From a virus, in the IMG/VR virus record IMGVR_UViG_3300042691_022450: 64,000 nucleotides of DNA, one strand, 5' to 3'. Positions within the stretch are counted from its first letter, which is position 1; the number at the start of each line of letters is the position of its first letter. Below are positions 31,779 to 41,419 of the stretch, piece by piece. The translations under genes and the position numbers were made by a program. The notes under the pieces were generated by a model. That model searched no databases and was not told the DNA's origin. It worked only from the letters and a program-made list of their open reading frames with translations.

Positions 31779-32186
31779 ATGGAACTTACAGTTGTAGCAA
31801 TCAAACGAGACGACAATCTTTACCACTTCAATCATTCTCATAATGATACAGTTGAAGAACTTCTGATGAATGGAACTGAAGAAGCAATTGACGAACATTG
31901 CTACTTCAAGACTGGAAAGTATCCGATTGAAGGTGATGAAGTTGAGATTTCTCTCTTCCTCCAAGAACCTGATGATTATGATACTCTTCTTGTGAAAGAA
32001 GTATCTGATGAGGAAGGAACAACTTATACTGATACGACTATGTGTGTTCCCGTGTGGTTATGCAACTGGAACCAAGGATACTTTGGTTTTGTGCCCGAAG
32101 AAATTTACATTAAAGTTAGGCCAATTAACAAAGGACTTGAATCATTTGTGAAAGCAACTGGTATGAGGGGGTTTTTGAATAAATAA
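31779..32186 (+). CDS. Acidic conserved hypothetical protein
   Basis: ORF after promoter module; WLC...YFG..PE.IY motif. Confidence 0.6.
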   Translation: MELTVVAIKRDDNLYHFNHSHNDTVEELLMNGTEEAIDEHCYFKTGKYPIEGDEVEISLFLQEPDDYDTLLVKEVSDEEGTTYTDTTMCVPVWLCNWNQGYFGFVPEEIYIKVRPINKGLESFVKATGMRGFLNK

Positions 32187-32203
32187 AAGAAAAAAGTAGT
32201 CAG

Positions 32204-32362
32204 ATGAAACCAACACCAAGAGAATTGCAGGAAACCTATAAGATTCATTCACAACTTATAGAGCATCTCATCTCGGAGGGTTATGCAGATGACAATGAAT
32301 CTGCAAATAAAATCATTGAGGGTATGAGTGAGACTTGGTTCACTACAATTATTAAGGACTGA
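32204..32362 (+). CDS. 52-aa stand-alone LLDEGYA-family domain
   Basis: Not in the ORF track; MKPTPRELQETYKIHSQLIEHLISEGYADDNESANKIIEGMSETWFTTIIKD*. Confidence 0.6.
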   Translation: MKPTPRELQETYKIHSQLIEHLISEGYADDNESANKIIEGMSETWFTTIIKD

Positions 32363-32439
32363 CACTTTCCGAACCGTCCACTCCCCTTGCCACGCAGCAG
32401 CATCCGTGGTATGATTACTAGGTAATCAAGGGAAAACCG

Positions 32440-32658
32440 ATGGAAGTTCTTGAGTTCACTGATTCTTCTGCTATCGCAAAGATTCAGTTTGATTATGCTG
32501 AAAATCAGGTAGGTATTGCTTATACTTACAAACCAGAGCAAGTTTATGTCTTCAAGTGCAATGACTTGACTTTGGTGAAAGAACAGGTTAAAGTTGCTGA
32601 TAGTGTTGGGAAACTTATTTCTCAATTTCGTAAAGATGGGACTTTGATTTCTGTTTGA
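32440..32658 (+). CDS. KTSC-like small protein
   Basis: SSAIAKIQFD...Y...SVGK pattern. Confidence 0.5.
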   Translation: MEVLEFTDSSAIAKIQFDYAENQVGIAYTYKPEQVYVFKCNDLTLVKEQVKVADSVGKLISQFRKDGTLISV

Positions 32659-32692
32659 TTATCCTGCTATTCGTTATTTGCGAATAGCAAAT

Positions 32693-32765
32693 GCTGGTTT
32701 AGCAATCTGGCGAATGCAATCGACTCATAATCGATGGGAGGCGAGTTCGATCCTCGCAACCAGCA
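32693..32765 (+). tRNA. tRNA-Met/Ile2 (CAT)
   Basis: Cloverleaf; ATCGA-CTCATAA-TCGAT. Confidence 0.85.
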
Positions 32766-32805
32766 CTTGACAATCTAAGCACACTCTGCTATGATTGTCT
32801 TATAA

Positions 32806-32880
32806 GGGACTGTTGCTTATTGGTTAAAGCCCACTGCTTATAACGGTGTGAACAGAGTTCAATTCTCTGCAGTCCTACCA
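32806..32880 (+). tRNA. tRNA-Ile (TAT)
   Basis: CACTG-CTTATAA-CGGTG; encoded CCA; TTGACA-17-TATGAT promoter upstream. Confidence 0.85.
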
Positions 32881-32881
32881 A

Positions 32882-33224
32882 GCGAGTATGGTGGAATCGG
32901 TAGACACACCAGACTTATGAAAATTGAGCCTCATTTGGGAAACCTTATGAGTGTAATTCCTCAAATTCGGTGAAACCTGTAAAATGGCAATACCGAGCGA
33001 AGTTGCAAGACAGTTGGAAAGACAACGGCTACCCAATGTGCTTCTAGAGAGGGTTGGAATTATCTAGAAAATGCAAAACGTGTAGAGACTAGACGGGGAA
33101 CACCTAAACTGAAAGGTATGGTGAAGGTATAGTCCAGACCACAAACCGAAAGGGTAGTGAAAACTATAGTGGTAAGAAAATCTGTTGGGCATTGCCCGTG
33201 GGAGTTCAAGTCTCCCTACTCGCA
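32882..33224 (+). tRNA. trnL: tRNA-Leu (TAA) split by a group I intron
   Basis: Exon 1 32882-32916 (...CCAGACTT), exon 2 33177-33224 (AAAATCTG...TACTCGCA). Confidence 0.9.
32917..33176 (+). ncRNA. Group I intron (260 nt, cyanobacterial/plastid trnL type)
   Basis: AATTGAGCC, CAAATTCGGTGAAACC, GTAGAGACT, GGTATAGTCC core elements; terminal G; inserted after U34. Confidence 0.9.
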
Positions 33225-33268
33225 CTTGCCCGAAAGGGCAAACACACATTATTTCAGTTATTAGTATT

Positions 33269-33853
33269 ATGATTGAACAGTTTATTTCCGATTTGAAAAC
33301 TATTCCCTCTGAGGAATATAAAAAATTCTTCATTCAAGCAAATAAAGTTGCTGCGATGTATCCCCTAAATGAAGGGATTGATTGTTTTGCTAGGGGTGAA
33401 TCAATTGAATTTGGATTCATTGAAACCTTCTCAAAATATATTGATATTAAAGCATCAGAAAAGAAAGAAAAAAATGACCCAGATGGTCTTTATCGCACAA
33501 AACATCTTTGGGATGCAAAAACGAAAAAATTTGGTTTGGAACCCCAAGAAAAGAAATCTTGGTTGATCAAATCAAAAACTTGGGATTTCAAAAAAACTCA
33601 GTCGGGAGTTTCTGAGTTCAAAACTAGGTCCGAATGGTTTGTTTTGATTGATCCTTGGACTCACCGACTTGCCGTTCTTGACGCAAAACTTCTGTTTTCT
33701 AAAAACTTTACTGAAGGTAAATCGAGAATTACTTTCTCAGTTTCTCAGGAAGATATTACAATGATTTATGATGGCATAAATGATGTAGAAGAAGTTAATG
33801 TTGTACCTGAGAGCAAAACTCTGCTAAAATACATTTGGGAACAAGCACAATAG
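33269..33853 (+). CDS. Putative PD-(D/E)xK nuclease
   Basis: PDG...WDAK motif; directly upstream of the methyltransferase. Confidence 0.45.
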   Translation: MIEQFISDLKTIPSEEYKKFFIQANKVAAMYPLNEGIDCFARGESIEFGFIETFSKYIDIKASEKKEKNDPDGLYRTKHLWDAKTKKFGLEPQEKKSWLIKSKTWDFKKTQSGVSEFKTRSEWFVLIDPWTHRLAVLDAKLLFSKNFTEGKSRITFSVSQEDITMIYDGINDVEEVNVVPESKTLLKYIWEQAQ

Positions 33854-33858
33854 ACTAA

Positions 33859-34698
33859 ATGAAACAATTTCCATTAAAGACAATGCTCCGTTATCCTGGA
33901 GGAAAGAGTAAAGCACTTAAAACTCTTGCTCCTTGGTTTCCTAGTGATTTCAAGGAGTTTAGGGAACCATTCTTGGGTGGTGGAAGCATTTCTTTAATGG
34001 TTTCACAGAACTATCCAAAAGTTCCTATTTGGGTAAATGATAAGTATTTTTATCTTTATAACTTTTGGATTCAACTCCGTGATAATGGACAAGTTCTTAA
34101 AGACAAATTAAGAGCAATCAAAGAAGAAGTGAATGGAGATGATGAAGCACATAAAGACTTGTTCAATCAGTATCAGAGTGACATTGAAACTCTTGAACCA
34201 TTAGAACAAGCAGTTGCTTTCTTTATTCTGAATAAGTGTTCTTATTCTGGTTTGACTGAGAATTCTACTTTCTCAGTTCAAGCATCACGTTCCAACTTCT
34301 CTTTGGTTGGAATTGATAAACTTCCAAAGTATTCTTATATTATCAAGAACTGGAAGATTACTAATATTGATTATGCCGAGGTAATGAATGACCGTGGTGA
34401 GGAAGTATTTGTATTTCTTGACCCACCTTATGATATCAAGGATTTCCTTTATGGAACTGGAAGGAAACTTCATTCATCATTCTCACACGAAAGATTTGCT
34501 GATGATGTAGATAAGTGCCCTCATCGTTTTATGATTACATATAATCTAAATGATTGGTTGCTGAATCGTTATAAAGAGTACAATTTGAATGAATGGAAAC
34601 TCCGATATTCAATGGTTCATCGTGGGGAAAAAGGAACTCAGGACAACGTTAAAACAGAATTGTTAGTTACAAACTATGTTCTGGATTCAGTTTTATAA
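33859..34698 (+). CDS. dam: DNA adenine methyltransferase (D12/Dam class)
   Basis: RYPGGKSK, EPFLGGGS, FLDPPY. Confidence 0.9.
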   Translation: MKQFPLKTMLRYPGGKSKALKTLAPWFPSDFKEFREPFLGGGSISLMVSQNYPKVPIWVNDKYFYLYNFWIQLRDNGQVLKDKLRAIKEEVNGDDEAHKDLFNQYQSDIETLEPLEQAVAFFILNKCSYSGLTENSTFSVQASRSNFSLVGIDKLPKYSYIIKNWKITNIDYAEVMNDRGEEVFVFLDPPYDIKDFLYGTGRKLHSSFSHERFADDVDKCPHRFMITYNLNDWLLNRYKEYNLNEWKLRYSMVHRGEKGTQDNVKTELLVTNYVLDSVL

Positions 34699-34726
34699 AT
34701 AAATTATATAAAACTATAAAAAACCA

Positions 34727-35341
34727 ATGAACTATAAGGACCTTCAGAACATTTCTTATCTTTCGCATCAAATTCTTACAGAAGCTTCTTCTGAGGAGCA
34801 CAATGTAATGAATCGTTGGCCTTATGCTTCTCCTTATCTTCAAGAGGAAAGAGCACCTGGTGTAAAACCTTACAAACCTGGTGTACCACCTATGTCTTAT
34901 TCTAAAGCAAAACCACCTTCAGGTGAAAAGGGAGATGGAAGTGGATATGGTGCTGACAAGAAATTTACTCAAGATACTGACGCAAAGTCATTTAGACCTG
35001 GTGTAGATGTTCCAAAAGTAAAGAAATTTGGTAGAATTTCAAGAATCATTCCTCACGGTATTGGTGATCACGCAAATAGAACTCAGTCAAGAGTTTCTAC
35101 AATCGTTGGAAAGGACCCTGGAGCACCAAAATCGGAAAAAATGCCACAGGAAAAGAAAAAGCCAAGTCGTGAAATTATCCGTAAAGGTAAGCAAGAAGAA
35201 AGTTTTGACCTTTATGACTTAGTTCTCGCACATCTCCTTGATGAAGGTTATGCTGATACTCAAGAACAAGCAGAAGCAATTATGGTGAATATGAGTGAAG
35301 GATGGGTTGATGCCATCGTTGATTCTTATATTCAAGGATGA
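34727..35341 (+). CDS. Putative internal head protein (LLDEGYA family)
   Basis: Late promoter 34694-701; DLYDLVLAHLLDEGYA..MSEGW. Confidence 0.55.
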   Translation: MNYKDLQNISYLSHQILTEASSEEHNVMNRWPYASPYLQEERAPGVKPYKPGVPPMSYSKAKPPSGEKGDGSGYGADKKFTQDTDAKSFRPGVDVPKVKKFGRISRIIPHGIGDHANRTQSRVSTIVGKDPGAPKSEKMPQEKKKPSREIIRKGKQEESFDLYDLVLAHLLDEGYADTQEQAEAIMVNMSEGWVDAIVDSYIQG

Positions 35342-35414
35342 TAATTTGACAATTTTAAACTAATAGTTTAAAATTACATATATAAATAATAATTATTTTA
35401 TTTTTATAACAATT

Positions 35415-35612
35415 ATGTCTGATACTGTAAATCAAATTGCTTCTGTTTTTGAAACTTGGAAACAAGAAGATGAGAAGTTTGAAACTGGAAATAGTTCTGC
35501 TGGAACTAGAGCAAGGAAAGCTCTGCAAGAAATTGCAAAACTTGCAAAGACTCGTAGAGCAGAAATCTCCGAAGTAAAGAATGCTAAAAAAGCAGAAAAA
35601 GTTGCTTCTTGA
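35415..35612 (+). CDS. Histone H1-like (Hc1-family) protein
   Basis: KFETGNSSAGTRARKALQEIAKLAKTRRAEI; late promoter 35381. Confidence 0.75.
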   Translation: MSDTVNQIASVFETWKQEDEKFETGNSSAGTRARKALQEIAKLAKTRRAEISEVKNAKKAEKVAS

Positions 35613-35641
35613 CCTTATAAATAAAACAACGACTTAAAACA

Positions 35642-35740
35642 ATGACTAACCTTCATACACAACCTAAGAGTGATTATCCGATGAACTGCTGGTTTATTGG
35701 AGAGACCCTCTTGGTTGCGAATATGGTAAGTCAAAGTTAA
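35642..35740 (+). CDS. Putative attenuator leader peptide (32 aa, 19 different amino acids)
   Basis: MTNLHTQPKSDYPMNCWFIGETLLVANMVSQS*; late promoter TATAAATA 35616-23; overlaps an antiterminator stem. Confidence 0.6.
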   Translation: MTNLHTQPKSDYPMNCWFIGETLLVANMVSQS

Positions 35741-35763
35741 AAGAACAAACCATAAAAGCAATG

Positions 35764-35798
35764 AAGAGGGAGAATCCAAAAGATTCTCCCTCTTTTTT
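35764..35798 (+). terminator. Intrinsic terminator (attenuator) upstream of tRNA operon
   Basis: AAGAGGGAGAATC-caaaa-GATTCTCCCTCTT-TTTT. Confidence 0.85.
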
Positions 35799-35962
35799 AT
35801 GCCTTGTGCCAGTTGAGCAACTGGTCGTATGATTTGCCACCAGGGTCCAAACTCTGGTATATTACTTGAGTCGGTGGGGGAACGAGACCCCAAATGCCTG
35901 GGACCACTTCTGGAACTGGCACAACCCACTTGCCCCGCAACGGGTTCTGTGGTATTCTTAAA

Positions 35963-36001
35963 GGGTGGTTGAGAGACCACCAGCACCTTGACAACTGAAT
36001 A
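35963..36001 (+). promoter_or_regulatory. boxB/boxA-like antitermination leader
   Basis: GGTGGT-tgagag-ACCACC hairpin followed by GCACCTTGACAACTGAATA, similar to cyanobacterial rrn boxA. Confidence 0.45.
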
Positions 36002-36015
36002 ATTACCACATTATT

Positions 36016-36087
36016 GGGACATTAACTCAGCGGAAGAGTATCCGGCTTTTAACCGGTTAGTCCTCGGTTCGAATCCGAGATGTCCCA
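36016..36087 (+). tRNA. tRNA-Lys (TTT)
   Basis: CCGG-CTTTTAA-CCGG cloverleaf. Confidence 0.9.
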
Positions 36088-36091
36088 TCGT

Positions 36092-36182
36092 GGGAGAGTG
36101 GCTACTGTTGGCAATATGTGTAGCGGAAGTCTGTAAAACTTTTACATCGGAACCATCGGGGGTTCAATTCCCTCCTCTCTCA
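36092..36182 (+). tRNA. tRNA-Tyr (GTA)
   Basis: GAAGT-CTGTAAA-ACTTT; long D-loop. Confidence 0.8.
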
Positions 36183-36186
36183 CCTT

Positions 36187-36258
36187 GGCCCTATAGTGAA
36201 GTGGTTATCACGCATCTCTGTCCAAGATGTATCACGAGTTCAAATCTCGTTAGGGTCG
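36187..36258 (+). tRNA. tRNA-Asp (GTC)
   Basis: CATCT-CTGTCCA-AGATG. Confidence 0.9.
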
Positions 36259-36261
36259 CCT

Positions 36262-36333
36262 GGTCTCGTCGTCTAATGGTTAGGACGTTGCTCTTTCACA
36301 GCAAAAACGAGGGTTCAAATCCCTTCGAGACTA
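36262..36333 (+). tRNA. tRNA-Glu (TTC)
   Basis: TTGCT-CTTTCAC-AGCAA. Confidence 0.9.
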
Positions 36334-36337
36334 CCTT

Positions 36338-36411
36338 GGGAACATAGCTCCAATTGGTAGAGCACAGGATTGAAGATCTTGGTGTTGTCGGTTCAAATCC
36401 GACTGTTCCCG
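36338..36411 (+). tRNA. tRNA-Phe (GAA)
   Basis: CAGGA-TTGAAGA-TCTTG. Confidence 0.9.
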
Positions 36412-36414
36412 CTT

Positions 36415-36569
36415 GCCCTTGCCGTTGGGACGGTGAAATAGGGTTCAATTTGACAAAGTAGTTTTAGATAGGTGTGCTGAACCCACACTGATAAGATTCC
36501 CCTCGTAAGGGTACTTCTTGTACGAAACCTCAAGTCTATTGAGAGTGGGATCATTCCCCACCAAGGGCA
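36415..36569 (+). ncRNA. 155-nt structured RNA with tRNA-like ends
   Basis: Acceptor-like GCCCTTG/CAAGGGC-A; T-arm-like GTGGG-ATCATTC-CCCAC; internal GGGTTCA/TGAACCC pairing. Confidence 0.6.
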
Positions 36570-36574
36570 CATAA

Positions 36575-36646
36575 TGGAATATAACTCAGTGGTAGAGTGC
36601 TGTGCTGATAACGCAGAAGTCGTGAGTTCAAATCTCACTATTCCAA
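36575..36646 (+). tRNA. tRNA-Ile (GAT)
   Basis: CTGTG-CTGATAA-CGCAG. Confidence 0.9.
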
Positions 36647-36697
36647 TTGTTGCCTTCGGGCAACATAAAACCCTTATGGGTTGCTTCAAGACAACAT

Positions 36698-36785
36698 AGA
36701 AAGGTGACCGAGAGGCTTAAGGTAGAAGTTTGCTAAACTTCCGAGGGAGAATATCCCTCCGAGGGTTCGAATCCCTCCCTTTCTG
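36698..36785 (+). tRNA. tRNA-Ser (GCT)
   Basis: GAAGT-TTGCTAA-ACTTC, long variable arm. Confidence 0.9.
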
Positions 36786-36787
36786 CT

Positions 36788-36859
36788 GGCAGTATAGCTG
36801 AGTGGTAAAGCACATCATTCATACCGATGCGACCGTGGGTTCAATTCCCACTACTGCCT
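36788..36859 (+). tRNA. tRNA-Met (CAT)
   Basis: CATCA-TTCATAC-CGATG. Confidence 0.8.
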
Positions 36860-36860
36860 T

Positions 36861-36932
36861 GTGTCATTATCCTAGTGGTTAAGGAACCAGTTTGTGAAAC
36901 TGGGTAGATGAGTTCAAATCTCATATGGCACC
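36861..36932 (+). tRNA. tRNA-His (GTG)
   Basis: CCAGT-TTGTGAA-ACTGG, C73. Confidence 0.85.
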
Positions 36933-36934
36933 CC

Positions 36935-37006
36935 GCCCTTATAGCTCAGTGGTAGAGCAACTCACTAGTAATGAGTAGGTCGTTGGTTCAAATCCGACTG
37001 AGGGCT
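36935..37006 (+). tRNA. tRNA-Thr (AGT)
   Basis: ACTCA-CTAGTAA-TGAGT. Confidence 0.85.
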
Positions 37007-37039
37007 CTTAACTATCTGGAATTTCCAGATAGTTCAAAT

Positions 37040-37110
37040 GTGTCTGTCGCCAAGTGGTAAGGCAGGAGTCTGCAAAACTCTTATCGTCAGTTCGATTCTG
37101 ACCAGACACT
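37040..37110 (+). tRNA. tRNA-Cys (GCA)
   Basis: GGAGT-CTGCAAA-ACTCT, U73. Confidence 0.9.
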
Positions 37111-37115
37111 CCTAC

Positions 37116-37187
37116 TCCAGAATCGACTAACAGGCAGGTCAACACACTTTGAATGTGTTTGTCTAGGTTCGAATCCTAGTTCTGGAA
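37116..37187 (+). tRNA. tRNA-Gln (TTG)
   Basis: ACACA-CTTTGAA-TGTGT. Confidence 0.85.
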
Positions 37188-37190
37188 CTT

Positions 37191-37263
37191 GTCCGTGTAG
37201 CCCAACGGAAGAGGCACTATCTTGAGGGGGTAGGTGTTGGAGGTTCAAATCCTCTCACGGACA
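37191..37263 (+). tRNA. tRNA-Leu (GAG)
   Basis: CTATC-TTGAGGG-GGTAG; short variable loop. Confidence 0.8.
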
Positions 37264-37266
37264 TAT

Positions 37267-37344
37267 GCTGGTGTAGCCCAATCGGCAGGAGGCAGCAGAT
37301 TCAAAATCTGAACAGTGTGGGTTCAAATCCCTCCACCAGTACCA
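37267..37344 (+). tRNA. tRNA-Leu (CAA)
   Basis: CAGA-TTCAAAA-TCTG; CCA encoded. Confidence 0.85.
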
Positions 37345-37345
37345 T

Positions 37346-37418
37346 ATCAGAGTAGCTCAATTGGTAGAGCAGTGGTCTCCAAAACTAAAGGTTGCGGGTT
37401 CAAGTCCTGTCTCTGATG
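37346..37418 (+). tRNA. tRNA-Trp (CCA)
   Basis: TGGT-CTCCAAA-ACTA, G73. Confidence 0.85.
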
Positions 37419-37422
37419 CCTT

Positions 37423-37457
37423 GTCCTCTTAACTCAGTGGAATAGAGTAAAGGACGC
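37423..37457 (+). pseudogene. tRNA remnant (acceptor and D arm only; probably Arg)
   Basis: GTCCTCT-TA-ACTC-AGTGGAATA-GAGT fused directly to AAAGGAC-G; anticodon and T arms missing. Confidence 0.6.
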
Positions 37458-37572
37458 TTGACATTCAATTGAATGTCATATATACTATTGATAGAGGTTA
37501 AGTCCCTGTTATATCCTTATGAGATATATCACACTTAATCCATCAAACACACAAACACACAGGAGTAAAAGA

Positions 37573-37776
37573 ATGTCACCTTACGAACTACGATTTGAGA
37601 TTTTTAAGCAAGCATATGCATTTGCTAACGATAAGTTTAGCATTGAGTATGATACTGCCCGTTGTTGGAATGAAAATTCTATGAATACGGTTAAGATGGA
37701 TTATCCAGATTTTCCTACATATGAGTATATTGAGCAACTTGCAGAGAAAATCAATAACTTTGTAAGTTCTAAATGA
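37573..37776 (+). CDS. Conserved small phage protein
   Basis: AGGAG RBS; MSPYELRFEIFKQA...AEKINNFVSSK. Confidence 0.7.
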   Translation: MSPYELRFEIFKQAYAFANDKFSIEYDTARCWNENSMNTVKMDYPDFPTYEYIEQLAEKINNFVSSK

Positions 37777-37815
37777 TAAAATAGGGTGATAACACCCTTT
37801 AAAGATAGATTATAA

Positions 37816-37902
37816 GGAAGGTCAATCCGATTGGTGACGGAACCGCTCTTGAAAAGCGTTGAGGTGTTAAAGCCCTTGGGAGTTCGACTCTCCCACCTTC
37901 CG
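37816..37902 (+). tRNA. tRNA-Ser (TGA)
   Basis: CGCT-CTTGAAA-AGCG, long variable arm. Confidence 0.9.
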
Positions 37903-37923
37903 TTGCTTCTTATGAAGCATAAT

Positions 37924-37995
37924 GCCCTTGTAGCTCAGTGGTAGAGCAATGGTTTTGTAAACCATTGGTCGCAAGTTCAAATCTTGTCGGGGGCT
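37924..37995 (+). tRNA. tRNA-Thr (TGT)
   Basis: ATGGT-TTTGTAA-ACCAT. Confidence 0.9.
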
Positions 37996-38031
37996 TGACA
38001 GAATTTCGATTCTGTCTTACAATCAAATAAT

Positions 38032-38106
38032 GCGAAATTAATTCAGCGGTAGAATGTCTGCCTTCCAAGCAGAACGTCAGGAGTTCGAATCTCCTATTTC
38101 GCTCCA
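38032..38106 (+). tRNA. tRNA-Gly (TCC)
   Basis: TCTGC-CTTCCAA-GCAGA; TCCA end. Confidence 0.9.
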
Positions 38107-38181
38107 GGGTGATTAACTCAGTGGTAGAGTTTCTCGTTTACACCGAGACAGTCGGGGGTTCGAATCCCTCATCACCCACCA
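38107..38181 (+). tRNA. tRNA-Val (TAC)
   Basis: TCTCG-TTTACAC-CGAGA; ACCA end. Confidence 0.9.
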
Positions 38182-38255
38182 CGGGATGTAGCTCAACTTG
38201 GTAGAGTGCTTGATTTGGGTTCAAGATGTTGCAGGTTCAAATCCTGTCATCCCGA
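38182..38255 (+). tRNA. tRNA-Pro (TGG)
   Basis: CTTGA-TTTGGGT-TCAAG; C1:G72. Confidence 0.9.
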
Positions 38256-38611
38256 CTTGGAGAATCTAAATACCTCCAAACACTACAAAATCATTATGTC
38301 ACTGATTTCACAAAAAGACAGAACGATTGCCATTGAGGCACTAGACTTTTATCTATTCAATAAGAAATTTGATCTTACTGAAGAAAAAAGAATGGAACTT
38401 AATGCACTTCTGAATTGGATTAAAATCGAATACAATAAACATGAAAATTAATCTTTGGCACTGTAAAGAAATGAATCAATGGAGATGGACTTTATGTGAA
38501 GATTCTCGTCCAATTGTTAAACAAGAATCAGGTCAAAGAGAAAATTTACGAGATGCTATGAATGACGTAGTAAATACAGTTGAGTATTTAATGAATACTT
38601 GACATTCTTAT

Positions 38612-38684
38612 TCCAGATGACCGAGCAAGCGAACGGGCCCGACTGTTAATCGGAGATTGGTAGGGGCAGTACCTACATCTGGAG
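38612..38684 (+). tRNA. tRNA-Asn (GTT)
   Basis: CCGA-CTGTTAA-TCGG; atypical T-loop GGCAGTA. Confidence 0.75.
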
Positions 38685-38685
38685 T

Positions 38686-38733
38686 TTCTAACCTCTAAAA
38701 TATTATAAATAATAATAAAGTTGGAGGTTAGAA
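38686..38733 (+). promoter_or_regulatory. RBS-sequestering hairpin with late promoter in its loop
   Basis: TTCTAACCTCTAA...TATAAATA(38704-11)...TTGGAGGTTAGAA-TG. Confidence 0.75.
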
Positions 38734-39278
38734 TGTCTGGTAAATCAGTTGTTGAATTTCGTCAAAGAAGAAAAAGATGGGCAGTTGAAGCATTTGGTGG
38801 AAAATGTGGTATTTGTGGTTATGATAAGTGTGTTGAAGCATTAGATTTTCACCACATAGACCCAAATGAAAAAGATTTTTCTATAACTGCATCTGTAGCA
38901 AACAGACAAGTATTTGTTGAAGAACTTAAAAAGTGTGTTTGTTTATGTTCTAACTGCCATCGTGAAGTTCATTCTGGAATTACAAAAATCCCAGATAATG
39001 TTCTAAAATTTGATGAAAGTTTTTCCAATAAACCTGTTCCAGAAAAACCAAAGCACCCTTGTAAAGAGTGTGGGAAACTAACAATCATTACTCAAACTTT
39101 TTGTTCAGTAAAATGTTCTCATAAAAGCAGAGAAGTTGTTGATTGGCCAACTAATCAAGAATTACAAAAATTAGTTCTTGAGAATGGTTATCGTTCTACT
39201 GGAAGAATGTTTGGAGTTAGTGATAATGCTGTTAGAAAAAGGTTAAATAAATTATCCAAATATCGTGGGGAAGTGTAA
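38733..39278 (+). CDS. HNH homing endonuclease
   Basis: CGICGY..LDFHHIDP..KCVCLCSNCHREVH; zinc ribbon; C-terminal HTH; 3' end overlaps tRNA-fMet. Confidence 0.85.
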   Translation: MSGKSVVEFRQRRKRWAVEAFGGKCGICGYDKCVEALDFHHIDPNEKDFSITASVANRQVFVEELKKCVCLCSNCHREVHSGITKIPDNVLKFDESFSNKPVPEKPKHPCKECGKLTIITQTFCSVKCSHKSREVVDWPTNQELQKLVLENGYRSTGRMFGVSDNAVRKRLNKLSKYRGEV

Positions 39279-39338
39279 AGGTTGCACAGAAGTCTCATAA
39301 GCTTCAGGTTGGTGGTTCGATTCCACCCCCCGCCACCA
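39264..39338 (+). tRNA. tRNA-fMet (CAT)
   Basis: C1 mismatch; GAAGT-CTCATAA-GCTTC; ACCA end. Confidence 0.8.
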
Positions 39339-39341
39339 AAT

Positions 39342-39415
39342 GCCCATATACTCCAACTGGCAGAGAGGGTGGACTTAGAATCCATACAGTGTAGGTTCGA
39401 CTCCTATTATGGGCA
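39342..39415 (+). tRNA. tRNA-Leu (TAG)
   Basis: GTGGA-CTTAGAA-TCCAT. Confidence 0.85.
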
Positions 39416-39419
39416 CCTA

Positions 39420-39492
39420 GGGGTCTTAGCTCAATTGGTAGAGCATTTGCTTTGCAAGCAAGAGGTTAGGGGTTCGAGTCCCCTAGATTCCA
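39420..39492 (+). tRNA. tRNA-Ala (TGC)
   Basis: G3:U70; TTGC-TTTGCAA-GCAA. Confidence 0.9.
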
Positions 39493-39494
39493 TT

Positions 39495-39740
39495 GTCCAA
39501 GAGGATAAGAAGTCTGATGTTTCGGACGGGGTTTCGATTACCCCCATCTCCATTACTTGGGGGTGCCAGGTTTCGACGGGGCATAAAGGTCTTATCTGTT
39601 GACGGGACAAGAAAACAAACGCAAACAAAATTGTTGCTTTCTCTCGTCAAACCGCATTGGTTTGAACTAAACGAGTGAGGGGGTTATAAGTTTCCTTCTT
39701 ACCCAAAACTTACAAGGAGGTGTAATGCCTCCTATTTTTG
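39495..39740 (+). ncRNA. ssrA: Permuted two-piece tmRNA (cyanobacterial type); outer ends approximate
   Basis: 3' module GACGGGGTTTCGATTACCCCCATCTCCA precedes 5' module GGGGGTGCCAGGTTTCGACGGGG; G3:U70; tag ANKIVAFSRQTALV* at 39621-39665. Confidence 0.85.
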
Positions 39741-39821
39741 TGCCTTGTGCCAATATAAGGACTGGCACAAGGCACTTGACATTCCGTCAAAACTTTGTTA
39801 TGATGAATAAGTACTCGATAA

Positions 39822-39880
39822 AAGATCAGGCAGCAATACAATACATTTTCCTTTCAAGAAAACCCATAAAAACTGATCTT
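39822..39880 (+). ncRNA. CAGCAA stem-loop RNA 1 (Glu anticodon-arm mimic)
   Basis: AAGATCAG-g-CAGCAA...TTTTC-CTTTCAA-GAAAA...CTGATCTT; TTGACA-17-TATGAT promoter at 39776-39804. Confidence 0.7.
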
Positions 39881-39886
39881 GTATTA

Positions 39887-39940
39887 AAGTTAATTCAGCA
39901 ACACAACTTTGAATCTGTAAACTCAAAACAACATTAACTT
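39887..39940 (+). ncRNA. CAGCAA stem-loop RNA 2 (Tyr anticodon-loop mimic)
   Basis: AAGTTAAT-t-CAGCAA...TTTGA-at-CTGTAAA-c-TCAAA...ATTAACTT. Confidence 0.7.
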
Positions 39941-39952
39941 GGAGAAAAAATT

Positions 39953-41419
39953 ATGACTTTCCTGACCGCACTTGAAACTGAACTGAACACCACTGAAACT
40001 CTCAATGGTGCCAAAGCATATAAATCTACTCTCAACAAATGTGTAGACCTGTTCGGTAAAATCTCTGCCTGTCGTAATGACATTCCACAGGCACGGAAAC
40101 TATTTGCTCACGCATATATGGAAGACCCTGAGACTGCGACTCGTATTCTCTTCAATGCCCGTGATATTCGTGGTGGGCAAGGAGAACGTGAAGTCTTCCG
40201 TAATCTATTCAAAGACCTTGTGAATGGGAATAGTGAAATTGCAACTAAACTTATTGAACTCATTCCTGTCTATGGTCGTTGGGATGACCTTCTAATTCTT
40301 GAAGGCACTGCTATCTGGGATAATGTTGTGGATGTTATCATCACGCAACTTGGTAAAGATGATGTTGCTCTGACCGCAGGGGAGAATGTTTCTCTGCTTG
40401 GTAAGTGGATGCCTTCTATCAATGCTTCTAGTGCTGATAGCAAACGTCTTGGTCGTGTGTTCGCAAAACGTCTTGAACTGAACGAACGTCAGTATCGTAA
40501 GTTCCTGACTGCTCTTCGTTTTCAAATTAAAATTGTGGAACAGAAGATGTGTTCCAAAGAATGGTCTGAGATTGACTACGAACATCTTCCTTCTCGTGCT
40601 GGATTTATGTATCGTAAGGCATTCGCAAAGCAGGATGCTACTCGTTACGCAGAATATTTGAGTGCCGTGGAGAAAGGTGATAAGAAAATCAATGCTGGAA
40701 CCATCTATCCTTATGAGATTGTAGATAAGTATCTCTACAAAGGTGGCAGTCAAGATAAGACTATTGACCTGATGTGGGAGGCACTGCCTAACTATATGGA
40801 AGGTCAAGAACTCAATGGTCTTGTGGTTGCCGATGTTTCTGGTAGTATGATGGGAACTCCAATGGCAGTTTCTATCTCTCTTGCGATGTATATTGCCGAA
40901 CGCAATACTGGTATTTGGAAAGATAAGTTCATCACTTTCTCTGAATCTCCTGAACTTCAATCCATCGTCGGTAATACTATCGGTGACCGTATTCGCAATC
41001 TTGCCAGTTCTTCTTGGGGATTCAATACTGACCTCAAAGCAGTATTTGAAAGTGTTCTGAATGCAGGAATCAAGAATAATGTTCCTGACGCAGAAATGCC
41101 TAAGAAACTTATCATTGTTTCTGATATGCAGTTTGACCAAGCGTGTAGTTCTAACAAACGCACCAACTTTGAGCAAATTCAGAAGATGTATCATAAGGCA
41201 GGATATGAGATGCCTGAACTTGTTTTCTGGAATGTGAATGCGATTGGGGGCAATGTTCCTATAACTATCCACGATACTGGAACTTGTCTGGTTTCAGGAT
41301 GTTCTCCTTCCATTCTGAAAAGTGTTCTGGGTGGTAAAACTATCACTCCTGTTGACGTGATGAAGGATGCGGTGTATGATGAACGTTATGCTCCTATCGG
41401 TGAGGCATTCAGTTCCTGA
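39953..41419 (+). CDS. DUF2828-family protein (Ro60/TROVE-like helical domain plus vWA)
   Basis: ARDIRGGQGERE, YGRWDDL, KWMPS, VADVSGSM (MIDAS), SDMQFD, FWNV, LVSGCSP. Confidence 0.8.
   Translation: MTFLTALETELNTTETLNGAKAYKSTLNKCVDLFGKISACRNDIPQARKLFAHAYMEDPETATRILFNARDIRGGQGEREVFRNLFKDLVNGNSEIATKLIELIPVYGRWDDLLILEGTAIWDNVVDVIITQLGKDDVALTAGENVSLLGKWMPSINASSADSKRLGRVFAKRLELNERQYRKFLTALRFQIKIVEQKMCSKEWSEIDYEHLPSRAGFMYRKAFAKQDATRYAEYLSAVEKGDKKINAGTIYPYEIVDKYLYKGGSQDKTIDLMWEALPNYMEGQELNGLVVADVSGSMMGTPMAVSISLAMYIAERNTGIWKDKFITFSESPELQSIVGNTIGDRIRNLASSSWGFNTDLKAVFESVLNAGIKNNVPDAEMPKKLIIVSDMQFDQACSSNKRTNFEQIQKMYHKAGYEMPELVFWNVNAIGGNVPITIHDTGTCLVSGCSPSILKSVLGGKTITPVDVMKDAVYDERYAPIGEAFSS

Follow-up and report, generated by a model that had tools for sequence, protein, structure and literature searches.

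The stretch of DNA analysed here (64 kb, hereafter the window) comes from a T4-like cyanomyovirus whose nearest cultured relatives by DNA comparison (blastn) are the Synechococcus phages S-SRM01 and S-PM2. Within the window, a Dam-type methyltransferase gene is followed by a gene for a histone-H1-like Hc1 protein (35415-35612) and then by a short leader ORF; no terminator was found in the interval from the Hc1 stop (35612) to the leader. The ORF (35642..35740, plus strand) runs from an ATG at 35642 through 32 codons to a TAA stop at 35738-35740. The motif TATAAATA, the T4-like late promoter consensus, is located 18 nt 5' of the ATG (35616..35623, plus strand), and no clear Shine-Dalgarno sequence was found for the leader of the window.

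The RNA of this region comprises four segments that are predicted to pair in alternative ways. Segment 1 (35638..35670, plus strand) covers the start-codon region and codons 1-10, including conserved Gln-Pro-Lys codons, and in the folds it forms the 5' side of a protector (1:2), whose apex is a mid-ORF hairpin made of codons 12-20 (35677..35701, plus strand). Possibly, this hairpin might act as an RNA-polymerase pause hairpin. The antiterminator (2:3; 35706..35770, plus strand) is a nested hairpin whose 5' arm is formed by codons 22-29 and whose 3' end doubles as the 5' arm of the terminator. Its helices pair 35706-12 with 35764-70 (CCCTCTT/AAGAGGG), 35714-18 with 35758-62 (core TTGC at 35715-18 and GCAA at 35758-61), and 35722-27 with 35749-54 (TATGGT/ACCATA), and the leader stop codon lies inside its apical loop. 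The intrinsic terminator (3:4; 35763..35798, plus strand) has a stem of 13-14 bp (35763/4-35776 with 35782-35795), a CAAAA loop, and a U-tract that extends to 35798. As judged from the sequence and the folds, the antiterminator and terminator share 35764-70 and are thus mutually exclusive. The late promoter, the 32-codon ORF, the nested stems, and the U-tailed terminator are all found where the original prediction had placed them. Compared with dinucleotide shuffles, all three structures are unusually stable: -34.5 kcal/mol (z = -5.9) for the 1:2 fold, -26.1 kcal/mol (z = -7.0) for the antiterminator, and -22.0 kcal/mol (z = -5.4) for the terminator. Rfam covariance models applied to positions 32000-41000 (E <= 1) returned only tRNA, tmRNA, and a group I intron. 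A T-box riboswitch or another curated cis-regulatory RNA was rejected, because 35600-36010 had no Rfam match.

The interval between the terminator and the downstream tRNA genes contains several sigma-70-type promoter modules (35806..35981, plus strand), for example, TTGCCA-18-TATATT at 35834-63 and TTGCCC-17-TATTCT at 35930-58, the last of which is followed by the hairpin GGTGGTTGAGAGACCACC (35964-81, plus strand). This last module and its hairpin are conserved in relatives. A promoter of this kind (-35, 17 nt, TGnTATTCT) directly followed by GGTGGTTGAGAGACCACC was found at 82 places in viral contigs, in some contigs twice (window 35930-35981 and loci L088, L094, L098, L114, L145, L153, and L159, among others). 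A recognised TATAAATA leader element is lacking at 21 of the 82 places, although approximately six of these 21 have a leader with a variant promoter or are cut off. This combination resembles a general-purpose 5' module of early transcripts, in which the hairpin is possibly a stabilising 5' stem-loop.

The tRNA array that follows (36015..39492, plus strand) is headed by tRNA-Lys(UUU). It comprises 22 tRNAs identified by ARAGORN and a probable tRNA-Tyr (36090-36183), with ORF-bearing gaps in between. According to the original prediction, 24 tRNAs cover the same 19 amino acids as the leader and lack an intact tRNA-Arg. The latter point stands, but the count is lower and neither ARAGORN nor Rfam detected tRNA-Asn in the array, so that 18 amino acids are covered. 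In relatives, tRNA-Arg(ACG) directly follows tRNA-Trp. The window retains only a 5' remnant of this gene (the first ~30 bases, ~37422-37455), and the rest has given way to a TTGACA...TATATA promoter and an 85-aa ORF (37519-37776), so that the altered region spans 37422-37776. tRNA-Asn(GTT), which in relatives lies near the array end, is missing from the window. At the 3' end of the array, directly after its last tRNA, the window encodes a cyanobacterial-type permuted (two-piece) tmRNA (39480..39731, plus strand; Rfam RF01851, 115 bits; ARAGORN 39463-39756) with the tag peptide ANKIVAFSRQTALV (then stop). Upstream of the leader, at 32882-33225, there is a tRNA-Leu(UAA) gene with a group I intron in its anticodon loop (Rfam RF00028, 58.8 bits, 32907-33158). 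tRNA-Leu(UAA) with a group I intron is a classic cyanobacterial and plastid arrangement, which is here phage-borne, and tRNA-Leu(taa), either intact or intron-bearing, occupies the equivalent place in relatives.

The element is not confined to the window. From viral contigs, 160 loci were fetched by means of two anchors, namely the Hc1 protein and the hairpin past the terminator, and the element profile matches 111 places among them, which correspond to ~57 unique sequences. Homologous leader ORFs of 31-37 codons are present in the 57 unique relatives, and their peptides fall into three types, namely A (window-like), B (...DCRYWHIEGTPLFADMERHM), and C (...NMSDW...ESPSA...), together with divergent single members. 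An exact search of viral contigs with the terminator of the window gave no match, since relatives differ by single bases, and a viral-contig scan for TATTGGCATATCGCG yielded 25 loci, three of which carry the element, including one that was new. Among cultured phages, blastn with A-, B-, and C-type elements matched only the marine phage S-PM2, where the element is unannotated (NC_006820, 118333-118549, plus strand). The S-PM2 record annotates a 118-aa hypothetical protein, S-PM2p162, on the minus strand (118191-118547), antisense to the leader, whereas the leader ORF itself is not annotated; S-PM2p162 is probably a mis-annotation. In nearly all relatives, TATAAATA is found at the same distance from the ATG, and a few have CATAAATA or TTGACA-N17-TATATA instead. 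In many relatives (loci L010, L013, L024, L051, and others), the TATAAATA of the leader doubles as the -10 element of a sigma-70-type promoter, TTGACT-N17-TATAAAT, with a perfectly palindromic spacer (GACTTTTT...AAAAAGTC), so that these phages may transcribe the leader early as well as late. A tmRNA after the array was also observed in A-type relatives (L096, L142, and L110), and B- or C-type loci showed none. It is suggestive that an operon possibly gated by ribosome stalling should end with an RNA that rescues ribosomes.

The position of the element is constant with respect to what lies downstream. In all 46 loci whose sequence extends downstream, it is located 118-223 nt 5' of the tRNA-Lys that heads the array, and loci without the element have merely 0-9 tRNAs. 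The upstream neighbour, in turn, varies: in many relatives, the element begins ~24 nt after another tRNA gene (often tRNA-Arg) instead of after Hc1. The element is therefore tied to the downstream array rather than to the upstream gene.

An alignment of related cyanophages, which had been proposed along with the original prediction, indeed revealed both a conserved short ORF and stem covariation. A covariance model was built on the 3' half of the element, and 60 matches were realigned with it. In the resulting alignment (A2), the antiterminator is 89.9% paired, compared with 38-60% for slid partners; 14 of its 22 pairs have compensatory changes, and none of 500 shuffles reached the observed score. 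The outer helix of the antiterminator varies in step with the 5' arm of the terminator: type A has CCCTCTT/AAGAGGG, type B CTCCCCTGT/ACAGGGGAG, type C TCCCCTT/AAGGGGA, and locus L094 TTT/AAA. The terminator is 94.8% paired and is kept in all relatives. The protector (1:2) is 84% paired in alignment A3, compared with 28-45% for slid partners, with changes on both sides in 10 of 34 pairs and a covariation score of 0.178 versus at most 0.068. For example, TCTTTCC of codons 2-4 lies opposite GGAAAGA, and in locus L024 the corresponding sequences are ACTTACC and GGTAGGT (on the side of codons 29-31). The mid-ORF hairpin (helix 4 of A3) is 89% paired, and in B-type leaders and S-PM2 the equivalent hairpin is the most conserved stretch, with variation in the loop alone. 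Thus, the protector, antiterminator, and terminator are all conserved with compensatory changes. The conserved protector, which joins segment 1 to segment 2, differs from that initially envisaged, in which the CWFIG codons (35687-35700) pair with 35750-60; the latter pairing occurs in no predicted fold, and no counterpart could be recognised by eye in B-type sequences.

The reading frame of the leader is conserved as well. Among the 57 sequences, the leader frame contains no stops, whereas the other two frames contain 60 and 164. Insertions and deletions within the ORF are of 3, 3, 3, and 6 nt, in contrast to 1-5 nt past the stop. The stop codon itself (TAA, TAG, or TGA) always falls in the apical loop. 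At the same time, the three codon positions have similar numbers of variable columns (18/21/22 of 32), so that the leader peptide does not exhibit the excess of third-position changes that would be a sign of purifying selection, nor does it belong to a recognised family, as the ORF has no Pfam or PHROG match. A kept frame, even variation over codon positions, and the lack of a protein family match together indicate a regulatory leader ORF. On this sequence basis, it seems to be the act of translation that matters, rather than the peptide product.

The element is probably a transcription attenuator of the ribosome-mediated (leader-peptide) kind, which controls read-through into the phage tRNA array. 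It possesses a frame-conserved ORF, an intrinsic terminator, an overlapping and mutually exclusive antiterminator, and a 1:2 anti-antiterminator, as do attenuators of the trp/his type; the tandem or clustered regulatory codons of such attenuators are absent, as the leader has no codon run. The trp/his-type logic proposed for this site before the tRNA array has thus been borne out by the conserved ORF and frame, by compensatory changes in the 1:2, 2:3, and 3:4 pairings, and by the constant position before large arrays. From this conserved anatomy, covariation, and frame we infer that the leader is translated, that ribosomes may stall on it, and that stalling would affect read-through.

The switch would gate read-through into the tRNA array of transcripts that come from the upstream late promoter and the Hc1 gene. 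In the proposed mechanism, the protector would pair segment 1 (start codon to ~codon 10) with segment 2 (codons 22-31), which would bury the AUG too; the antiterminator would pair segment 2 with segment 3 (35749-35770), with the stop codon in the loop; and the terminator would pair segment 3 with segment 4. If no ribosome is loaded, 1:2 would form first and 3:4 next, and transcription would stop. It would likewise stop if a ribosome runs smoothly to the stop codon, since segment 2 would then be occupied and 3:4 could form. However, a ribosome delayed between codon 2 and ~18 would hold segment 1 open and leave segment 2 free for pairing with segment 3. Once 2:3 has formed, RNA polymerase would continue via the promoter region into tRNA-Lys and the remaining array.

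Stepwise folding is consistent with this scheme. A transcript that ends at the stop codon of the ORF folds into 1:2; when segment 3 has been made, 2:3 is predicted in 10 of 12 representatives; and the full-length RNA folds into 1:2 plus the terminator. When the ribosome was modelled as a block and only the RNA downstream of it was folded (thermodynamic folding), the antiterminator had a probability of 0.7-1.0 with the A site at codons 2-18 and of 0 from ~codon 20 to the stop, and this was the case for every type. In equilibrium folds that include no ribosome, most representatives favour the antiterminator (P 0.66-1.0), and only two disfavour it (0.04-0.05). Because 2:3 thus outcompetes 1:2 at equilibrium in most members, termination by default would rest on folding order and not on stability. 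It should be noted that the array is also preceded by a sigma-70-type promoter located past the terminator; the attenuator would therefore not be the sole switch, and its conditional read-through could only supplement a constitutive supply.

Since the leader contains no run of one codon, the signal that it reads would most likely be slow decoding in general or the severe depletion of a single tRNA specificity among the ~14 for which the sensing stretch has codons. It had initially been suggested that the leader may sense the whole tRNA pool, on the grounds that its first 26 codons include 19 amino-acid types, with Arg as the only one missing; a codon count confirmed this composition. The probability of at least 19 types in 26 residues, which had also been proposed for calculation, is 8e-4 (independent draws with the composition of the window), but the cut at 26 was picked after the fact. 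The corresponding value for all 32 residues is 0.012; 19 types are reached by 0.85% of 1055 unrelated small ORFs, and because the window has 72 ORFs of leader size, ~0.6 ORFs with 19 types are expected by chance. Amino-acid diversity alone is thus unusual and not decisive. Codons 2-18 of the leader in the window contain 14 types (P(>=14) = 0.034). The sensing stretch (codons 2-~18) includes no codons for Gly, Glu, Val, or Ala, and Ile (codon 19) is borderline. Freshwater relatives have 17-20 types in 31-37 residues, and S-PM2 has 15 in 34. Given the residues common between types, diversity exceeds expectation in types A and C (p 0.003-0.04) and not in type B (p ~0.2) or S-PM2. The idea of pool sensing is thus favoured by the A- and C-type leaders, which are more diverse than expected, but the B type and S-PM2, which are ordinary in this respect, speak against it, and only codons 2-~18 would sense.

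The correspondence between leader residues and array tRNAs was considered as well. The absence of Arg from the leader, which had been pointed out together with that of an intact tRNA-Arg, is not shared by the family: close relatives have leader Arg codons (CGC or CGT), and the window has TGC where they have CGC. The window has neither an Arg codon nor a tRNA-Arg (apart from the remnant), and locus L001 has both; locus L002 has the codon without an intact tRNA-Arg(ACG) after tRNA-Trp. The match in the window would fit the pool idea, albeit anecdotally. On the other hand, the leader of the window contains three Asn codons and its array lacks tRNA-Asn, and tRNAs for Ala, Phe, Cys, or Trp are often missing from B-type arrays whose leaders contain those residues. 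A leader residue set that mirrors the tRNA set of the array was rejected, as no consistent match emerged over 26 loci with complete arrays.

Taken together, it is possible, though we would advance it only tentatively, that the leader audits most of the tRNA pool. A more elaborate and rather doubtful version is a decoding audit with one codon for each of ~14 amino acids, in which the catastrophic loss of any such tRNA would stall the ribosome and direct late transcription towards replacement tRNAs and, in this lineage, the tmRNA, as a self-regulating counter-defence loop. Possible triggers would include a host anticodon nuclease and the breakdown of host tRNAs late in infection. A point against the attenuator reading itself comes from attenuator kinetics, as single, non-repeated codons respond weakly to mild starvation.

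Alternatively, the same attenuator might be tuned to a specific signal, namely the decoding of Lys/Gln codons in segment 1 or ribosome arrest by the nascent peptide. A Lys codon next to a Gln codon is found within codons 4-11 of each of the 48 distinct leader peptides, with both AAA/AAG and CAA/CAG in use, and the first downstream gene is always tRNA-Lys. Moreover, tRNA-Lys(UUU) and tRNA-Gln(UUG) are classical targets of anticodon nucleases, so that reading Lys/Gln codons would report their loss. The bases opposite these codons change along with them (AAA:UUU in B types, AAG:CUU in S-PM2), and RNA pairing alone therefore does not require Lys/Gln codons. Nonetheless, the codons lie within the conserved 1:2 helix, where RNA constraints may account for much of their conservation, and the segment 1 stretch contains no more than a single codon for Lys and one or two for Gln. 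For peptide arrest, no arrest motif was recognised in the leader, and the equal variability of the three codon positions speaks against a conserved functional peptide. Tuning to such a specific signal thus appears unlikely.

The attenuator reading must also be weighed against the view that the ORF is an ordinary small late gene for a functional 32-aa peptide, with RNA structures that stabilise the mRNA or limit its translation and with the adjacency to the tRNA array being inherited synteny. Small phage peptides with tRNA-related roles, such as T4 Stp, do exist, and the conserved ORF, its own promoter and terminator, and some residues common across types would suit such a gene. However, no more than 7-12 residues are identical between peptide types, many of the seemingly conserved residues are encoded by base-paired RNA that covaries, and variability is equal over the codon positions. 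Furthermore, no protein family matches, and an ordinary gene would have no need of an antiterminator that overlaps the terminator stem by 6-7 nt and changes together with it. We consider this explanation very unlikely. Least probable of all is that the element is an insulating terminator or 3'-end module of the Hc1 late transcript, whose structures act on RNA stability or re-initiation while the tRNAs are transcribed only from the downstream sigma-70-type promoter: the lack of a terminator between Hc1 and the leader, the plain terminator at the same place in locus L098, and the occurrence elsewhere of the promoter and 5' hairpin module without a leader would agree with it, but most relatives have a tRNA gene ~24 nt upstream in place of Hc1 and are still always followed by a large array, and the conserved frame and covarying antiterminator would be left unexplained.

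If the element is indeed an attenuator, then the phage probably tunes its own tRNA output to the decoding performance of the ribosome. Phage tRNA arrays are usually discussed as static aids to codon usage or as substitutes for destroyed host tRNAs, and, to our knowledge, little has been established about the control of their expression. A phage of this kind would instead measure decoding performance and feed the result back onto tRNA supply. Because S-PM2 carries the element, this hypothesis can be tested directly with an established phage and host. In S-PM2d, small ORFs 'within a tRNA operon' were found by RNA-seq to be up-regulated under phosphate stress (PMC10976474); these are irrelevant to the leader element, because they are located at 155 kb, in another tRNA cluster. 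Literature searches returned no description of leader-peptide attenuation of tRNA genes, nor is it mentioned in a large survey of structured RNAs in phages. Thus, the element would be the first case found of ribosome-mediated attenuation controlling tRNA genes.

Among known systems, the E. coli/Salmonella trpL, hisL, leuL, and pheL leaders of amino-acid operons are close in design, and the nearest parallels in logic are the multivalent ilv and thr leaders, the pheST leader, and attenuators that respond to ribosome stalling in general. The trp-type leaders likewise have a short leader ORF (whose translation we infer in the phage), 1:2/2:3/3:4 segments, a ribosome whose position decides between the structures, and a full-length fold that leads to termination. 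In these leaders, however, the codons of one amino acid occur in runs, whereas the phage leader has 19 amino-acid types in 32 codons. Trp-type leaders have the stop codon between segments 1 and 2, whereas that of the phage leader lies in the 2:3 loop. Moreover, trp-type attenuators precede genes for biosynthetic enzymes, whereas the phage element precedes tRNA genes and a tmRNA, and, unlike them, it is located behind a late promoter and has a second promoter past the terminator. The pheST leader (phenylalanyl-tRNA synthetase operon) and the T-box leaders of aminoacyl-tRNA synthetase genes resemble it in that a decoding component is attenuated according to the supply of charged tRNA. Nonetheless, the pheST leader is specific for Phe, T-box leaders bind uncharged tRNA directly and are untranslated, and neither controls tRNA genes. 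The B. subtilis bmrB-bmrCD and vmlR leaders and macrolide-type mef/msr leaders are similar in lacking amino-acid-specific codon runs and in that a slowed ribosome leads to the antiterminator; unlike the phage element, they respond to antibiotics and precede resistance genes, and several of them involve specific arrest peptides. The element of the window would thus present an attenuator design without codon repeats. A single leader that reports several amino acids or tRNAs has precedents in the ilvGMEDA leader (Ile/Leu/Val) and the thr leader (Thr/Ile), which contain several codons each for two to three amino acids, whereas the stall-sensitive stretch of the phage leader contains codons for ~14 amino acids, most of them only once.
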